64,000 nt of DNA from Bdellovibrionales bacterium. Lineage in GTDB: Bacteria > Bdellovibrionota > Bdellovibrionia > Bdellovibrionales > UBA1609. The DNA is taken from contig CBDHDF010000007.1 in NCBI GenBank assembly GCA_965261545.1, positions 128,001-192,000 on the forward strand. The letters run 5' to 3'. The notes below the pieces were generated by a model, which was not told the origin of the DNA, did not search any database, and worked only from the letters and a program-made list of their open reading frames with translations. Positions within the stretch are counted from its first letter, which is position 1. Every line of letters begins with the position of its first letter. Below are positions 1,273 to 41,076 of the stretch, piece after piece. Made by a program: the position numbers and the translations under genes.

Positions 1273-3161
1273 GAGCCTGTAAACTATTTTGTGTAACTGC
1301 CGAATCATATTAGGATGAACTATCATCCTGAAAGGAGAAGGCAAAATGGATATCAAGACAATAGGCAAGGAACTAGCGAAGAACGTCAAGACCCAAAAGG
1401 ATTTATCCGACATAACGGGTCAACTGATGAAGGTTGTTTTAGAGACAGCTCTTAATGCGGAAATGGACGATCACCTAGGTTATGAGAGGCATGAGAAGTC
1501 TGAGACCCGCAAATCCAACACTCGCAATGGTTACAGTAGAAAGACCATAAAGGGAGAGAAAGGCGAGGTGGAGCTTCAGGTCCCCCGTGACCGAAGTGCC
1601 TCCTTTGAGCCCCAAGTCATTCCCAAAGGCAAGACTCGTCTTGAGGGCTTTGAAGACAGTATTCTGACCCTCTATGCGAGGGGAATGACGACCAGGGATA
1701 TTCAAGGAGCTATCAAAGACCTCTACCATGGTGCAGAGATATCCCACTCAGTGATAGCCAACGTGACGGATGCTGTTATTGATGAAGTTACGGCTTGGCA
1801 GAACCGCCCCTTGGATAGCACTTACCCTATCGTATTTTTGGACTGTATCGTGGTGAAGGTCCATCAAGACAAGAGAGTTATTAATAAGGCGATTTACCTA
1901 GCTCTTGGTATTACAGAGGAGGGTCAGAAAGACTTGTTGGGCCTATGGATTTCTGAAAATGAGGGTTCAAAGTTTTGGTTGAGTGTTTTGACTGAGCTGC
2001 AAAATCGAGGGTTGAAAGACGTATTTATATTTTCTGTAGATGGTCTTACAGGTTTTCCTCAAGCCATTTCAGCGGCTTTTCCCAAGTCTAAAGTACAACT
2101 GTGCATTGTCCATATGGTCCGCAATTCCCTTCGCTATGTTCCTTCCAAGGATATGAAAGCTGTCGCCCAAGACCTCAAGTCCATTTATGGCTCTACGACT
2201 CTGACAGAAGCTGAAAAGGCCCTTGAGGAATTTTGTACCAAGTGGTCTTCAAAGTATCCGAATATTGAAAAGTCTTGGCGTAGGAATTGGGACAATCTCA
2301 TCACTATTTTCGATTATCCGGATGAAATCAGAAAGATTTTTTATACCACAAACGCCATAGAGTCGTTAAATAGCGTGATCCGCAAGGCGATCAGAAATCG
2401 TAAGATATTTCCCAGTGATCGGTCGGCTTTAAAAGTTGTATATTTAGCGATAAAAATGGCCTCTAAGCGATGGACACGACCATTACACAACTGGAAGCCA
2501 GCCATGAACAGGTTTGCCATTGAATACGGTGACCGTTTTGACAACTAAGTTTTTTAATAAGGTCCACCACCTGCCTTATAAGGGGGCTTAAAAGCCCCTC
2601 TAAGGCGTTGACAGAAGTACTGGAATACCGAGACTATGGTTAGGGTAATATAGTATGGGAACCTAAATACATGCCCTCTTGGTGCAGATTTGGGTTCCCA
2701 TTTTTTTTCATATTTCATCCCAATTCTGGTATTTCTCGAATATCCTAAGTTAAAAAAAATAAAAAAAAGGGGGTAATATAGTATGGGAACCTAAACACAT
2801 GAACCCTTTGATGAGATTGGAATTTCCATTTTTTTGAGAGAGCCATTGCTGATTTTTTTTCAACCAAGATGATAATTATTTATTTGAGTTCTTTCCAGTT
2901 CTGATATGATCCCATTACGGCTCCATAATACAATCAAAAGTCCAGAGTAACTAAAGAGGCCAATTATATAGACCAGCGAAGATGTCCACCTCCCCATTAA
3001 CTTATAATGCATTGTGACTGACAAAATCGCTTGAAGGAAAAAATGTCAATTATACATTGACGAATAATATGGGACTGTGCTTTTTACCAGGAGTGGAGCC
3101 ACATAAGTGGCTTTAAGATTTAAGAAAAAAATTGCAGTTACACAATTATTTTTACAGTCCC
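1273..3161 (+). mobile_element. IS256-family element, copy 1 (1889 bp)
   Basis: Imperfect TIRs GAGCCTGTAAACTATTTTGTGTAACTGC / GGGACTGTAAAAATAATTGTGTAACTGC; 8-bp TSD GAATGGCC; ~610-bp 3' tail. Confidence 0.96.
1346..2548 (+). CDS. IS256 family transposase
   Basis: RNGY, VPRDR, QLCIVH and YTTNAIES mutator-family motifs; SD AAGGAG. Confidence 0.96.
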   Translation: MDIKTIGKELAKNVKTQKDLSDITGQLMKVVLETALNAEMDDHLGYERHEKSETRKSNTRNGYSRKTIKGEKGEVELQVPRDRSASFEPQVIPKGKTRLEGFEDSILTLYARGMTTRDIQGAIKDLYHGAEISHSVIANVTDAVIDEVTAWQNRPLDSTYPIVFLDCIVVKVHQDKRVINKAIYLALGITEEGQKDLLGLWISENEGSKFWLSVLTELQNRGLKDVFIFSVDGLTGFPQAISAAFPKSKVQLCIVHMVRNSLRYVPSKDMKAVAQDLKSIYGSTTLTEAEKALEEFCTKWSSKYPNIEKSWRRNWDNLITIFDYPDEIRKIFYTTNAIESLNSVIRKAIRNRKIFPSDRSALKVVYLAIKMASKRWTRPLHNWKPAMNRFAIEYGDRFDN

Positions 3162-24005: not shown

Positions 24006-27000
24006 CAATGCCGTTTCCTTAAGCCACCACACCCCTCTGCCTCTGCGTTAAGCTATTTCTTTTAAAAGAACTCCCAGCCCTTTTGATAGACCTTTCATAG
24101 CTTCTTTTGAAGTGCCTCCTCTTCTCCATTGAAATCTTCATCAGCAACTTTATCTGCTTCCTAAATTTCTGATAGAGCCCCGCAACAAAAAGGGGGATGC
24201 TATCCATTATGAAATCAAGAATCAGTTTAAAGTTAGGTTTTTTGTAGTCATTTTTTACCAACTGATTCACACTGTCTTCATCCTCATTTATGCTCATTTG
24301 AATCTTTGTATAATTGAAGAGCCAAAAATAAGAATACAGCTCTTGCAATATTCCATTAAGGCTTGTTGAGTGCCACTGCTCCATTTTCATTGTCGATGTA
24401 AAATCACGAAATGTCGTTTCTATTTCCCAACGACGAGAGTAAAGAGCAACCATATCCTTCTTGTCCAAGGAGCCATGCGGAAGATTAGTGGCCAAAACAG
24501 AGAACTCCCCAGTCTTTGGGTTTTTATACTTATAGAGATGAATGACCACCCCCTCAATAACCATTTGTGAATACCAACCTGGGCCATTAAATAAATTTAC
24601 GATGGGGATAAAAGTAGAGCCTCGCTTACAACGCGCAATAAAGAAGTTACTGGCTTGAGCATGGGCCTTAATAATCTCTGTAGATAAATAAAGCCTATCG
24701 TAGAGAGTTATGCTATTACTCTCAAAACTACCTATCATTTGAATAGCATTGGCGATTTCGTTGAGAGCGGGAGAAAAGCAAAGATTCTTTGTCACACCCG
24801 ATAAAACGTCATAAGCATGAGATAGATACATACGTAAGAAATGAGTTTCCATCTCATTTGGGCAAGGGTACCCACAATAACCCTCCTTTAAAAGATCTTT
24901 AGAGCGAGGAAGTGCTAATTGGTCGCCATCTATGGCATAGATATAAAAGCCATGAAACGTTTTTCTCAATGGTTCGTAGTCTGTAATCAGAGATTCAAAG
25001 ATATTTTTAAAAAATAGGTAAGAAATACTTTGACGTATCTTGCTGAGACTGCTTTTGACTGGCATGAGAAGCAGGTCACCAAAATGAGTCCATACCGTCT
25101 TAAGAGCGATTTGGTAGCCTTCGTAATTTGTTCCGGAAATAAGATAGATAATAGTAAAAAAGAAAATTTGAGGATTAAATTTTCGATTCCTTTTTTGTTT
25201 TTCTGGATCGACAAGGTGCTCTGGCTTGAAGGAAGAATCAAGTTTTGGTAGAATAAAATGGTCATCTGTGACGCGAACTCGTCATTTGGGGGCTTTCGAG
25301 ATCAATATTGGATTGCATGTGACTTACTCCTTGGTTGAGGGTTGGGTGTAAAATAAAACAAGTCTTATTCTTGTCGATTTATCTAATAATTTCAAGAGAT
25401 TTTTCTTAAGGAAACGAGCCTGTAAACTATTTTGTGTAACTGCCGAATCATATTAGGATGAACTATCATCCTGAAAGGAGAAGGCAGAATGGATATCAAG
25501 ACAATAGGCAAGGAACTAGCGAAGAACGTCAAGACCCAAAAGGATTTATCCGACATAACGGGTCAACTGATGAAGGTTGTTTTAGAGACGGCCCTTAATG
25601 CGGAAATGGACGATCACCTAGGTTATGAGAGGCATGAGAAGTCTGAGACCCGCAAATCCAACACTCGCAATGGTTACAGTAGAAAGACCATAAAGGGAGA
25701 GAAAGGCGAGGTGGAGCTTCAGGTCCCCCGTGACCGAAGTGCCTCCTTTGAACCTCAAGTCATTCCCAAGGGTAAGACTCGTCTTGAGGGCTTTGAAGAC
25801 AGTATCCTGACCCTCTATGCGAGGGGAATGACGACCAGGGATATTCAAGGAGCTATCAAAGACCTCTACCATGGTGCAGAGATATCCCACTCTGATAGCC
25901 AACGTGACGGATGCTGTTATTGATGAAGTTACGGCTTGGCAGAACCGCCCCTTGGATAGCACTTACCCTATCGTATTTTTGGACTGTATCGTGGTGAAGG
26001 TCCATCAAGACAAGAGAGTTATTAATAAGGCGATTTACCTAGCTCTTGGTATTACAGAGGAGGGTCAGAAAGACTTGTTGGGCCTATGGATTTCTGAAAA
26101 TGAGGGTTCAAAGTTTTGGTTGAGTGTTTTGACTGAGCTGCAAAATCGAGGGTTGAAAGATGTATTTATATTTTCTGTAGATGGTCTTACAGGTTTTCCT
26201 CAAGCCATTTCAGCGGCTTTTCCCAAGTCTAAAGTGCAACTGTGCATTGTCCATATGGTCCGCAATTCCCTTCGCTATGTTCCTTCCAAGGATATGAAAG
26301 CTGTCGCCCAAGACCTCAAGTCCATTTATGGCTCTACGACTCTGACAGAAGCTGAAAAGGCCCTTGAGGAATTTTGTACCAAGTGGTCTTCAAAGTATCC
26401 GAATATTGAAAAGTCTTGGCGTAGGAATTGGGACAATCTCATCACTATTTTCGATTATCCGGATGAAATCAGAAAGATTTTTTATACCACAAACGCCATA
26501 GAGTCGTTAAATAGCGTGATCCGCAAGGCGATCAGAAATCGTAAGATATTTCCCAGTGATCGGTCGGCTTTAAAAGTTGTATATTTAGCGATAAAAATGG
26601 CCTCTAAGCGATGGACACGACCATTACACAACTGGAAGCCAGCCATGAACAGGTTTGCCATTGAATACGGTGACCGTTTTGACAACTAAGTTTTTTAATA
26701 AGGTCCACCACCTGCCTTATAAGGGGGCTTAAAAGCCCCTCTAAGGCGTTGACAGAAGTACTGGAATACCGAGACTATGGTTAGGGTAATATAGTATGGG
26801 AACCTAAATACATGCCCTCTTGGTGCAGATTTGGGTTTCCATTTTTTTTCATATTTCATCCCAATGCTGGTATTTCTCGAATATCCTAAGTTAAAAAAAA
26901 TAAAAAAAGGGGGTAATATAGTATGGGAACCTAAACACATGAACCCTTTGATGAGATTGGAATTTCCATTTTTTTGAGAGAGCCATTGCTGATTTTTTTT

Positions 27001-35729: not shown

Positions 35730-37146
35730 CAATGCCGTTTCCTTAAGCCACCACACCCCTCTGCCTCTGCGTTAAGCTATTTCTTTTAAAAGAACTCCCA
35801 GCCCTTTTGATAGACCTTTCATAGCTTCTTTTGAAGTGCCTCCTCTTCTCCATTGAAATCTTCATCAGCAACTTTATCTGCTTCCTAAATTTCTGATAGA
35901 GCCCCGCAACAAAAAGAGGGATGCTATCCATTATGAAATCAAGAATCAGTTTAAAGTTAGGTTTTTTGTAGTCATTTTTCACCAACTGATTCACACTGTC
36001 TTCATCCTCATTTATGCTCATTTGAATCTTTGTATAATTGAAGAGCCAAAAATAAGAATACAGCTCTTGCAATATTCCATTAAGGCTTGTTGAGTGCCAC
36101 TGCTCCATTTTCATTGTCGATGTAAAATCACGAAATGTCGTTTCTATTTCCCAACGACGAGAGTAAAGAGCAACCATATCCTTCTTGTCCAAGGAGCCAT
36201 GCGGAAGATTAGTGGCCAAAACAGAGAACTCCCCAGTCTTTGGGTTTTTATACTTATAGAGATGAATGACCACCCCCTCAATAACCATTTGTGAATACCA
36301 ACCTGGGCCATTAAATAAATTTACGATGGGGATAAAAGTAGAGCCTCGCTTACAACGCGCAATAAAGAAGTTACTGGCTTGAGCATGGGCCTTAATAATC
36401 TCTGTAGATAAATAAAGCCTATCGTAGAGAGTTATGCTATTACTCTCAAAACTACCTATCATTTGAATAGCATTGGCGATTTCGTTGAGAGCGGGAGAAT
36501 AGCAAAGATTCTTTGTCACACCCGATAAAACGTCATAAGCATGAGATAGATACATACGTAAGAAATGAGTTTCCATCTCATTTGGGCAAGGGTACCCACA
36601 ATAACCCTCCTTTAAAAGATCTTTAGAGCGAGGAAGTGCTAATTGGTCGCCATCTATGGCATAGATATAAAAACCATGAAACGTTTTTCTCAATGGTTCG
36701 TAGTCTGTAATCAGAGATTCAAAGATATCTTTGAAAAATAGGTAAGAAATACTTTGACGTATCTTGCTGAGACTGCTTTTGACTGGCATGAGAAGCAGGT
36801 CACCAAAATGAGTCCATACCGTCTTAAGAGCGATTTGGTAGCCTTCGTAATTTGTTCCTGAAATAAGATAGATAATGGTAAAAAAGAAAATTTGAGGATT
36901 AAATTTTCGATTCCTTTTTTGTTTTTCTGGATCGACAAGGTGCTCTGGCTTGAAGGAAGAATCAAGTTTTGGTAGAATAAAATGGTCATCTGTGACGCGA
37001 ACTCGTCATTTGGGGGCTTTCGAGATCAATATTGGATTGCATGTGACTTACTCCTTGGTTGAGGGTTGGGTGTAAAATAAAACAAGTCTTATTCTTGTCG
37101 ATTTATCTAATGATTTCAAGAGATTTTTCTTAAGGAAACGGCATTG
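35730..37146 (-). mobile_element. IS4-family element without a matching TSD
   Basis: Flanks ACTGAGGGGT and CCCCCTGAAT differ. Confidence 0.96.
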
Positions 37147-37234
37147 CCCCCTGAATAGATAGAGCCTGTAAACTATTTTGTGTAACTGCCGAATCATATT
37201 AGGATGAACTATCATCCTGAAAGGAGAAGGCAGA

Positions 37235-39063
37235 ATGGATATCAAGACAATGTGTGCCACGAAGTCACGGAGGTGACATGCTGATGTGAAGATGGAGGTA
37301 GGTCCTCCGCACTCGGATTTCAGGATTTGAGTGCAAACAACCTTGCTGCTGCATGGGAGGCAAGGCCCTTGTAGTGAGCGAGCAAGGAAAAGGCCGTAGT
37401 AAACGGTCATGTAAGTACTAGGGAGATGAGCGAAAGCAAACCCACCGACGACGCATCGAAAGATTAACAGTCGCGTCAAAACCGAAGGAAGGTTGTCTCC
37501 GTCGGGATAAGTCTAGAGGAAGCCTGATGACCGATCTAGACGGCGTGCGGTGTATAGGGGGCATGAACCTAGTACAGGCTTCGTATCGGAACGTGGGAAC
37601 CTGCTGGTGGATGATAAGGGAAACGCTATAAGGGAGACCCCCGAAGTGCTAAATACCGATGCCACCAACCAGGGGCAGAGTGATTCGTAGTAGTGATGAA
37701 GTTCTTGTAATGAGAATGGAGCGAAGGGGTCACATGATTTATGGAAGTAGTCAGGCCAACTTGGTTATGCTGAGGAGGAGCCTAATGAAACGGAAAATCA
37801 TAGGAGCCGTGTGAGGGGAGACTTTCAAGCACGGTTCTGTGAGGGGCAGTGGGGGAAGTTCCCACTGCCTACTCGATAGGCAAGGAACTAGCGAAGAACG
37901 TCAAGACCCAAAAGGATTTATCCGACATAACGGGTCAACTGATGAAGGTTGTTTTAGAGACAGCTCTTAATGCGGAAATGGACGATCACCTAGGTTATGA
38001 GAGGCATGAGAAGTCTGAGACCCGCAAATCCAACACTCGCAATGGTTACAGTAGAAAGACCATAAAGGGAGAGAAAGGCGAGGTGGAGCTTCAGGTCCCC
38101 CGTGACCGAAGTGCCTCCTTTGAGCCCCAAGTCATTCCCAAAGGCAAGACTCGTCTTGAGGGCTTTGAAGACAGTATTCTGACCCTCTATGCGAGGGGAA
38201 TGACGACCAGGGATATTCAAGGAGCTATCAAAGACCTCTACCATGGTGCAGAGATATCCCACTCAGTGATAGCCAACGTGACGGATGCTGTTATTGATGA
38301 AGTTACGGCTTGGCAGAACCGCCCCTTGGATAGCACTTACCCTATCGTATTTTTGGACTGTATCGTGGTGAAGGTCCATCAAGACAAGAGAGTTATTAAT
38401 AAGGCGATTTACCTAGCTCTTGGTATTACAGAGGAGGGTCAGAAAGACTTGTTGGGCCTATGGATTTCTGAAAATGAGGGTTCAAAGTTTTGGTTGAGTG
38501 TTTTGACTGAGCTGCAAAATCGAGGGTTGAAAGACGTATTTATATTTTCTGTAGATGGTCTTACAGGTTTTCCTCAAGCCATTTCAGCGGCTTTTCCCAA
38601 GTCTAAAGTGCAACTGTGCATTGTCCATATGGTCCGCAATTCCCTTCGCTATGTTCCTTCCAAGGATATGAAAGCTGTCGCCCAAGACCTCAAGTCCATT
38701 TATGGCTCTACGACTCTGACAGAAGCTGAAAAGGCCCTTGAGGAATTTTGTACCAAGTGGTCTTCCAAGTATCCGAATATTGAAAAGTCTTGGCGTAGGA
38801 ATTGGGACAATCTCATCACTATTTTCGATTATCCGGATGAAATCAGAAAGATTTTTTATACCACAAACGCCATAGAGTCGTTAAATAGCGTGATCCGCAA
38901 GGCGATCAGAAATCGTAAGATATTTCCCAGTGATCGGTCGGCTTTAAAAGTTGTATATTTAGCGATAAAAATGGCCTCTAAGCGATGGACACGACCATTA
39001 CACAACTGGAAGCCAGCCATGAACAGGTTTGCCATTGAATACGGTGACCGTTTTGACAACTAA
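37235..39063 (+). CDS. IS256 transposase split by a group II intron (exons 37235-37251 and 37878-39063)
   Basis: Joining the exons gives ATG GAT ATC AAG ACA AT|A GGC AAG, identical to copy 1. Confidence 0.9.
37252..37877 (+). ncRNA. ORF-less group II intron (IIB, class D/RmInt1-like), 626 nt
   Basis: 5' GTGTG and 3' ACTCGAT; DV GAGCCGTGTGAGGGGAGACTTTCAAGCACGGTTC at 37804-37837; EBS1 GTTGTCT (37492-37498) pairs with exon AGACAAT; no TSD. Confidence 0.95.
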
Positions 39064-39433
39064 GTTTTTTAATAAATAAGGTCCCCTTATAAGAGGGCTT
39101 AAAAGCCCTCTTAGGCGTTGACAGAAATGCTGGAATACGAGACTATGGTTAAGGGTAATATAGTATGGGAACCTAAATACATGCCCTCTTGGGCAGACTT
39201 GGGTTTCCATTTTTTTTCATATTTCATCCCAATGCTGGTATTTCTCGAATATCCCAAGTTAAAAAAAATAAAAAAAGGGGGTAATATAGTATGGGAACCT
39301 AAACACATGAACCCTTTGATGAGATTGGAATTTCCATTTTTTTGAGAGAGCTATTGCTGATTTTTTTCCAACCAAGATGATAATTATTTATTTGAGTTCT
39401 TTCCAGTTCTGATATGATCCCATTACGGCTCCA

Positions 39434-40713
39434 TGAGGTGGACCCCAATGTCAGACTGAAAAACTTGATTTTTAAGCTACACCACAGCGCACAAAGAAGC
39501 CCCGTGTTAATGTGTTAAATCCACCTCTCCCATATGCACCTGATAAGGGGTGCAATCCTGAAGAGACTGGTGTGGCCTTTTATTATTATAAAAATTAAAA
39601 TACGTTTTAAAACCTTTGTTGGCTTGAACCATTGATTTGTCTTGATAGCCTTTCAAGTAAACCTCTTCGTACTTAACAGACCGCCAAAGCCGCTCGATCA
39701 TAATGTTGTCTAAACACCTGCCTTTGCCGTCCATACTGATCGAGATTCCATGATTTTTCAATAATTTTGTGAAAACCTCAGAAGTGAATTGGCACCCTTG
39801 ATCAGTATTGACGATATCAGGGCAACCAAATGTTTCTATGGCTTCCTCAAAGACTTCTAAACAAAAAGTTGTCTCAAGGCTATTAGAAAGTCTCCAAGAC
39901 AGAACAAATCGGCTAAACCAATCTATCACAGCTACCAAGTAAGCAAAGCCACCAGACAACCTTATAAAAGTAATATCAGTAGCCCACACTTGGTTGGGGG
40001 AGCAGATATTAAGCCCCTTAAGTAGGTAGGGATAAACCTTATGCTGATGGTTTCGCTGACTGGTGTTTGGACCTGGGAAGATAGCGAAAAGACACATCTT
40101 TTCCATGAGCCGCTGAATCCTCTTGCGGTTGACCCCATGGCCATTAAGTCTTAAGTGAGCTGCCATTTTACGGCTCCCATAAAAAGGGGTCTCCAAGTAC
40201 TGTTTGTCAATTAAACTCATCAGTTTTAAGTTGTAGGCACTCTCAGGTATGGGCTTGTAGTACAAGGCTCCCTTAGAGAGTCCTAGCAACTCACATTGGC
40301 GAGTGACACAAATATTTGGATGTTTCCAATTGATAGCGGCTTTTTTCTCAGGCATTGAAGCTCTCAGATTTTTTTTTTAACCAATCATTTTCAACCTTTA
40401 ACTGCCCTATTTGCCGATACAATTCATCAATGGTTTTTCTTTGTTCTTCTACCTCGTTGTTGTCCTTTTTTTTGCTCGCTAAGGCCTTAGGAATGGCTTC
40501 AATAGCTTGCTTCTTCCAATCTTGGATTTGGATGCGGTGAACTCCATGCTTGGAGGCCAACTCTGCCATTGTGTCAGTCTCACGAATGGCGTCAAGTGCG
40601 ACTCTGGCCTTAAATTGTGCGCTGTGTTTCTTTCTCATTATCCCCTCCTATGAGGGGCTTTTTACCCGCTGCGGTGTAACTTAGCAACCAGTCTGTTTTT
40701 GGGGTCCACTATA
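39434..40713 (-). mobile_element. IS3-family element (1280 bp)
   Basis: TIRs TGAGGTGGACCCC / GGGGTCCACTATA; 3-bp TSD CCA. Confidence 0.94.
39507..40638 (-). CDS. IS3 transposase OrfA (40348-40638) and OrfB (39507-40355), -1 frameshift fusion
   Basis: WATDITF, TDQGCQF and DNIMIERLW motifs; A10 slippery run at 40369-40378. Confidence 0.92.
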
Positions 40714-41076
40714 CCATCTCCCCATTAAATTATAATGCATTGTGACTGACAAAATCGCTTGAAGGAAAAAATGTCAATTATACATTGACGAATAATATGG
40801 AGCTGTGCTTTTTACCAGGAGTGGAGCCACATAAGTGGCTTTAAGATTTAAGAAAAAAATTGCAGTTACACAATTATTTTTACAGTCCCAATAGATACAA
40901 TATCACAATGAATGAGACATATAGGATTTTTTCTTGACTCTATTGCGGTTTGAGTAGCCTTAGGCCAAAGATACCACAGGAGGATGAGCTAACTGCACAA
41001 TCAGAACTTAACGCACTCCTAAACTTGAATATGGTTAACAAAAAGTAAGAAAAGATGGTCTAAATAAAGTATTGGA

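Follow-up and report, generated by a model that had tools for sequence, protein, structure and literature searches.

The 626-nt insert in an IS256 transposase gene of the window (i.e., the whole 64,000-nt stretch of DNA that was analysed) is confirmed, from its sequence and predicted structure, as a real and structurally intact ORF-less group IIB intron, whose RNA is of class D (RmInt1 type) and is predicted to self-splice. The account we hold to be likely is that of a non-autonomous group IIB retroelement with a class D RNA, which would be mobilised by a borrowed class D IEP and which inactivates a minority of the IS256 copies. The intron, its host element and the two intron-free transposases of the window are as follows.

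37162 to 40889, forward strand: IS256-family host element (1889 bp in the empty state), which in this case contains the intron as well as an IS3-type insertion and is flanked on both sides by an 8-bp target duplication.
37235 to 37251, forward strand: transposase exon 1 (five codons plus 2 nt), with IBS1 and IBS2.
37252 to 37877, forward strand: ORF-less intron of group IIB, its RNA of class D type, belonging to family A, which has 17 starts in this genome; identified by Rfam, fold, copies and alignment.
37878 to 39063, forward strand: transposase exon 2 (PF00872).
1346 to 2548, forward strand: intron-free IS256 transposase, intact at 400 aa, with the empty site after 1362.
25489 to 26689, forward strand: intron-free IS256 transposase split over two frames (144 and 272 aa), with the empty site after 25505.

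The intron lies in sense orientation, begins with GTGTG, ends with AT and splits codon 6 of the transposase after its second base. Its removal yields an open transposase frame of 400 aa from ATG 37235, and the frame on its 3' side is that of a Mutator/IS256 transposase (PF00872, 406 bits). The host element bears imperfect inverted ends; around the intron itself there is no target duplication, only the dinucleotide AT being common to the end of the 5' exon and the end of the intron. Two Rfam models match the intron and are the sole ones to exceed their gathering scores across the window, i.e., D1-D4-2 at 37294-37411 with 88.5 bits (cut-off 36) and DV/DVI at 37802-37877 with 66 bits (cut-off 40). 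The predicted fold has z = -4.21, with 0 of 20 shuffles equally good. The features expected of a group II intron are present, namely a GUGYG 5' end, an AY 3' end, the lack of a target duplication, a fold into six domains, the catalytic triad of DV and a bulged A in DVI seven bases before the end, while the DV bulge is AA against a consensus of AC. No sigma-70 promoter or terminator was seen in 37100-37950. The initial annotation had claimed this insert in codon 6 with these ends, without a duplication and with an intact DV/DVI, and had proposed both the Infernal search and the folding of domains I-III as checks; its claims are borne out, apart from the departure in the DV bulge. It had also stated that the other two IS256 copies carry the identical empty site; both are empty, with 1 and 0 mismatches in 50 nt at the junctions after 1362 and 25505, respectively.

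The domains and long-range contacts of the intron are located as follows.

37257 to 37596, forward strand: domain I, from centroid helices, the D1-D4-2 match and the two-sided changes in DI-DIII pairs given below.
37452, forward strand: delta' (C), the partner of delta G37491, pairing in 8/9 aligned introns (L019 fails).
About 37462 to 37465, forward strand: EBS2, with 3/4 pairs to exon positions -9 to -12 at the IS256 site and two matching changes in variant C2:291100; its register is not fully settled.
37491 to 37498, forward strand: delta (37491) and the 7-nt EBS1 (37492-37498), with 7/7 EBS1 pairs to the 5' exon.
37555, forward strand: EBS3 (U), in a column that pairs with the first 3'-exon base in 9/9 introns.
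37597 to 37733, forward strand: domain II (37597-37676), J2/3 with gamma A37677, and domain III (37680-37733); the gamma column pairs with the last base in 9/9 introns.
37734 to 37801, forward strand: domain IV stub (68 nt) with a 7-bp basal stem, a DIVa-like hairpin and an SD at 37772-37780, from fold and alignment.
37785 to 37814, forward strand: remnant frame of 9 codons, which opens at the IEP start and closes at the DV stop usual for class D; the class D IEP genes L012 and L015 end at this same stop.
37803 to 37838, forward strand: domain V, with the AGC triad at 37805-37807 and the AA bulge at 37827-37828, from Rfam and alignment.
37841 to 37874, forward strand: domain VI, with bulged branch A37871, which buries the in-frame GTG 37849 of the downstream transposase, from fold and Rfam.

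Domains I-III were aligned over nine introns, i.e., the window intron and eight relatives: family B of the same host, five IEP-bearing introns and two ORF-less ones. The window structure is kept in 83.3% of the alignment cells, in comparison with 33-43% for slid controls, a contrast biased in its favour given that the tested structure was derived from one aligned row. Two-sided changes are found in 53/112 DI-DIII pairs, and EBS1, EBS3, delta-delta' and gamma-gamma' covary over the nine introns. The EBS1 pairing amounts to 6 or 7 of 7 in all nine, each EBS1 being chosen as the best 7-mer within a short stretch. EBS2 is a weak contact, with 3/4 pairs at the IS256 site, or 4/5 in a slipped register preferred by the automated scan, and 4/4 in variant C2:291100. 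These results agree with the pairing of EBS1 GUUGUCU with exon AGACAAU and of EBS3 U37555 with the first 3'-exon base, both of which the initial annotation had given. The retention of an SD and ATG in the domain IV stub had likewise been pointed out, and this SD and ATG 37785 occupy the start position of class D IEP genes. The AA bulge of DV, where Rfam has AC, recurs in L019, an intron of another genome.

The contacts of subgroup IIB are all found, i.e., EBS1, EBS3, delta-delta' and, with 3/4 pairs here, EBS2. As for the class, domains I-III are collinear with those of the five IEP-bearing introns, whose proteins form one clade that includes that of L038, the Sinorhizobium meliloti 1021 pSymA intron, which we take to be RmInt1; D1-D4-2 is, in addition, the Rfam model matched. 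The long-range contacts and the class D alignment therefore indicate a IIB RNA of class D type, an assignment made from the RNA alone because the intron encodes no IEP, and the layout like that of RmInt1 proposed by the initial annotation is upheld. Subgroup IIC introns have no EBS2, a short RNA and a CGC triad; this subgroup was rejected given the presence of EBS2, the length of 626 nt, the AGC triad and the class D alignment.

The genome contains 17 starts of the intron, of which eight are at the IS256 junction, seven elsewhere and two directly behind another copy. Eight full copies are identical to the letter, and a contig run from a second study contains the intron without any letter change. 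The seven insertions outside IS256 are exact and share no flanking homology with IS256; three are in repeated elements (present in 37, 23 and 21 copies) and four in single-copy DNA. When the EBS of the window intron were paired with six distinct sites, four reached 10/11 pairs, a level attained by 0.14% of 300,000 random positions, and the other two 7/11. Two variants, read by eye, have EBS changes that match their own sites: C2:291100 has five, yielding 11/11 pairs there versus 7/11 with the EBS of the window intron, and C2:494623 has one in EBS1, giving 7/7 pairs. These matching changes point to spread by retrohoming in trans. In copy C2:245651, an EBS1 change worsens the pairing.

Within IS256, the seven alignable occupied copies fall on four haplotype lineages, each of which has empty relatives, and this points to repeated homing rather than to one transposing carrier copy. 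The haplotypes are mosaic, and two occupied copies have one flank in common; given this mosaicism, gene conversion occurs and could account for part of the IS256 occupancy. A bias towards one strand, as expected for an endonuclease-minus intron, was considered as well: the locally G-rich strand carries the site in 7/8 occupied versus 33/59 unoccupied IS256 sites (P = 0.089), and P = 0.022 is obtained when weak-skew sites are dropped, with a cut chosen post hoc. This bias was not counted, given the skew is scrambled and two sites are non-independent. The deletion of the ORF, the retention of the ribozyme and the several copies at EBS-matched sites are what is seen in TeI3-type families, and IS256 appears as a homing target. 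The mobilisation in trans of a non-autonomous intron, suggested by the initial annotation, is supported.

The copies directly behind another one are exact head-to-tail pairs, at C2:405046/405672 and C11:520568/525126. At the tandem junction, the boundary between exon and intron offers 7+3 pairs and a U-G EBS3 wobble, and the intron 3' end is less good (5+2). Two certain pairs represent no excess under random placement (P about 0.2); a value of P = 0.004 is obtained if two further IS-interrupted loci are counted, and these loci are ambiguous. In them (C2:236742-239521 and C4:185506-188822), the same 1.9-kb IS is bordered by family A halves that overlap, and no duplication surrounds it; they are either trimmed tandems or IS-mediated duplications. 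Comparable routes have been published: excerpts of PMC4615759 describe head-to-tail insertion for RmInt2, and those of PMC12584367 describe tandems of EcKTE56.groEL formed via an EBS3(U)-IBS3(G) wobble, at 22.4% for the ORF-deleted form versus 4.2%.

The likely history of the intron can be put together from these data. The IEP gene is deleted down to its start and stop, the ribozyme is complete on paper, and near-identical copies occupy sites that pair with its EBS1 and EBS2. Transcribed together with the host element, the intron would have been spliced and would then have entered new DNA targets by reverse splicing, presumably with a borrowed class D (endonuclease-minus) IEP as helper. It would in this way have spread through the IS256 site, which is abundant, and through comparable sites of other repeats, and its EBS3 U, which could also take the first G of a resident copy, would give rise to the head-to-tail pairs. 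The effect on IS256 is plain insertional inactivation of a minority of copies. Against this account stand the lack of an intact class D IEP, the two sites with only 7/11 pairs, the mosaic IS256 haplotypes with the flank common to two occupied copies, and the off-consensus DV bulge.

The genome has 30 RT matches. The class D IEP family among them groups with L038 and other class D proteins (support 95/99), and all its copies in the assembly are broken, with several lesions each, whereas most intron copies are pristine. In one copy the 5' RNA is missing, a 1936-bp recombinase element interrupts the sequence and there is a stop in frame; a second is 5'-truncated and has two frameshifts, its called product of 334 aa being without the N-terminus; the remaining ones are fragments. 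Fragments of the class D IEP are 98.5-99.7% alike and show that a protein of this kind was present in the genome recently. The intron RNA that belongs to the broken IEP resembles family A in short blocks only, and therefore this intron is not the parent of family A; all 23 D1-D4-2 matches in the genome are in the ORF-less families A and B. Long uninterrupted IEP frames are found outside class D only (463 aa twice, 435 aa once and 495 aa four times), in a separate clade with D1-D4-6 RNAs, and these intact proteins are only 30-35% identical to a class D protein. The three intact types are represented at C11:346787-348175, C7:387880-389184 and C11:940183-941667.

No ORF-bearing parent of family A was found in 60 related genomes, where the one match covers only 41 nt, or in scans of GTDB (0 and 5 loci), metagenome (11 loci) and viral (0 loci) sequences, the searches being exact-pattern or sampled and hence not proof of absence. 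The best relatives of family A are about 70-76% identical to it. Likewise, the scoring of 8000 candidate proteins yielded no intact twin for the broken class D IEP, the best other match being 76%. The assembly comprises 11 contigs, is 96.8% complete and is repeat-rich, so absence from it is weak evidence. The initial annotation had named the want of a spliced product and of a cognate class D IEP as the mark of a dead relic, and half of this was found, i.e., the assembly holds no intact class D IEP. In this respect the family departs from the TeI3 pattern, in which an intact related driver is present. The driver was most likely a class D IEP that has since been broken or deleted, or that the assembly lacks, and at present the family may therefore be stranded.

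If the ribozyme were dead, the copies would owe their spread to DNA-level processes alone, whether hitchhiking on IS elements, gene conversion or the duplication of segments. The mosaic IS256 haplotypes, the flank common to two occupied copies, the absence of an intact class D IEP and the non-consensus DV bulge are in line with such a spread, which we nevertheless regard as unlikely given the seven exact insertions outside IS256, which lack flanking homology and mostly pair with the EBS, the two variants whose EBS changes fit their own targets, and the recurrence of the same DV bulge in L019. A live ribozyme could instead be served by another class of protein, i.e., the intact IEPs of the other group II introns of this host would splice and mobilise a class D RNA today. 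In this case, two divergent ORF-less class D introns would still be spreading, via a borrowed maturase/RT of another intron class, after the knockout of all class D maturase genes, one of them by a serine-recombinase element. That long IEP frames are confined to the other types, that both ORF-less class D families are multi-copy while sharing only about 71% identity, and that no near-identical intact class D IEP was among the 8000 scored proteins would fit this reading. It is nonetheless quite improbable, both as a rescue across classes and as the fuller scenario: the weakness of absence from such an assembly, the near-identity of the class D IEP fragments, which places such a protein here recently, and the distance of the intact IEPs from class D all argue against it, and the driver IEPs described in the available portions of PMC2882425 serve closely related RNAs. 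If true, it would imply a general bacterial factor for splicing and mobility across group II lineages, and a driver IEP of a different class would bear on the origin of a common splicing apparatus.

The initial annotation read the intron as a splice gate on the transposase. For this copy the dependence on splicing stands: translation of the unspliced RNA from the native start would end after 13 residues, and therefore this one interrupted copy needs splicing. Translation bypass from GTG 37849, which is in frame with the transposase (404-aa ORF), was judged weak, given the start is predicted to be fully paired within DVI (unpaired probability 0.0) and GAGG is only 4 nt away. For the supply of transposase across the genome, the claim is not supported: among 67 IS256 junctions, 57 are empty, a further 2, also empty, are broken a short way downstream, and the intact 400-aa frame is present in 43 intron-free copies; therefore the intron cannot control this supply. 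That the intron is retained in codon 6 since IS256 transposition thereby becomes conditional on splicing is accordingly a reading to which we give very little credence, even if the short unspliced product, the buried GTG and the IS256 site's share of 8/17 starts speak for it, and even if RmInt1 is argued, in the portions of PMC3035460 and PMC4238363 available, to limit its host IS by poor splicing (0.07% in vivo). In addition to the empty junctions and intact frames, splicing would yield the 400-aa product in only 3 of the 7 occupied copies that could be scored, no occupied pair resembles transposition products of a gated element, the intron is also antisense to an IS3-type transposase and in single-copy sites, and the copies present no pattern of selection for a gated form. 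The intron is thus an element that inactivates a minority of IS256 copies, as described for RmInt1, rather than a control switch. A 626-nt skip joint in three runs, which are contigs of unrecorded kind, was rejected as evidence of splicing, since it equals the empty IS256 copies in the DNA.

The precedents for our preferred reading, i.e., retrohoming in trans with insertional inactivation of IS256 copies, are already known: ORF-less introns mobilised in trans, homing to IS elements, transposase loss and tandems via a U-G wobble. Simon et al. (2008) is reportedly a survey of ORF-less bacterial introns that may already describe ORF-less class D ones. Such class D-type introns are also found in unrelated records, i.e., L014 and four of the five loci of the GTDB scan. 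L014, L018, L019, L020 and L021 have, like the window intron, a short domain IV without an RT frame, and D1-D4-2 matches are present in four of the five, L020 being cut before that part. They are 69-76% identical to the window intron over part of its length and have other targets. With L038, the intron shares the aligned 7-nt EBS1, EBS2, EBS3, delta-delta' and gamma-gamma', yet BLAST yields 65% identity over only 294 nt.

In the parts of PMC5894124, PMC4615759 and PMC3035460 available, RmInt1 and RmInt2 of Sinorhizobium meliloti (IIB3/class D) target an IS transposase gene, as the window intron does. They encode their own IEP, whereas the window intron does not, and their host is the IS630-family ISRm2011-2 rather than IS256. 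L038 has a G-C EBS3 pair, which fits RmInt1 as given in the available text of PMC4615759; the same text describes for RmInt2 an EBS3 U, relaxed EBS2 pairing and head-to-tail copies, all like the window intron. TeI3 of Thermosynechococcus elongatus, as covered by the excerpts of PMC2882425, resembles the window family in having one ORF deletion that left traces of the start and the stop, many copies, EBS that diverged towards new targets and insertions in IS elements, and its mobility is by a driver IEP in trans. That driver is intact and closely related in the same genome, and TeI3 is CL/IIB1; the window intron, in contrast, has a class D RNA, no parent that could be found, and a sole class D IEP that is broken. 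EcKTE56.groEL (IIB1) is similar in its tandem copies and wobble, and differs in that, in the part of PMC12584367 available, its ORF deletion is engineered and its target is one strict groEL site. No report that combines a group II intron, IS256 and retrohoming was found in the open literature searched, and IS256 as the host family of such an intron may be a new, small point. The system is of modest value: it provides a compact class D intron from nature, with EBS variants in the same genome, and it offers a clean test of the RNA-specificity range of IEPs since the assembly shows no intact class D protein.

IS elements from several families saturate the window. An element with a 348-aa DDE transposase has nine copies at places between 63 and 42464. 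The IS3-type element within the IS256 copy carries an empty copy of another target site of family A (junction after 39826), antisense to its transposase. The IS256 element extends for about 610 nt past the transposase stop (39064-39434 and 40714-40889 in the window). This tail contains a hairpin and an internal repeat, none of its ORFs exceeds 78 aa, and it is possibly a non-coding RNA or decayed cargo.

Family B, the second ORF-less class D family, is found at C2:910162-910805, C2:47262-47908 and five more starts, and is about 71% identical to family A. Its EBS1 differs, its domain IV is rebuilt without SD and ATG, and its domain VI is nearly identical to that of family A. Some of its copies are in the terminal repeat of a 1.9-kb IS that also hosts one copy of family A, and a chimeric intron (C2:463512-464144) joins domain I of family B to domains II-VI of family A behind a B-type 5' exon. 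In the ORF-less class D-type intron of L021 (1900-2750), the D1-D4-2 block is duplicated and another intron is nested at domain V.

Class D introns are themselves entered, or followed directly, by insertions of the intron type with the 463-aa IEP (C11:346168, C10:511249, C2:910815 and C2:263416). A variant of this 463-aa IEP type is followed by IS256 exon 2, an arrangement that suggests it may once have entered behind a copy of family A. At C11:939832-943790, two full introns with the 495-aa IEP are placed one behind the other. The 1936-bp element (C11:871158-873093, and about ten more whole or partial copies) is bounded by inverted ends of 12 bp and encodes a large serine recombinase (Resolvase, Recombinase, Zn ribbon). 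Four types of group II intron RT gene contain it, three of them at the PQG motif and the fourth at another site, and it appears to be an integrative element with intron RT genes as its target. No report of such genes as a serine-recombinase target was found in the literature searched, including passages of PMC10083194.

Reverse transcriptases other than group II IEPs are present at C4:59374-60432 and C11:1009752-1010651, the former of which looks DGR-like by its motif.
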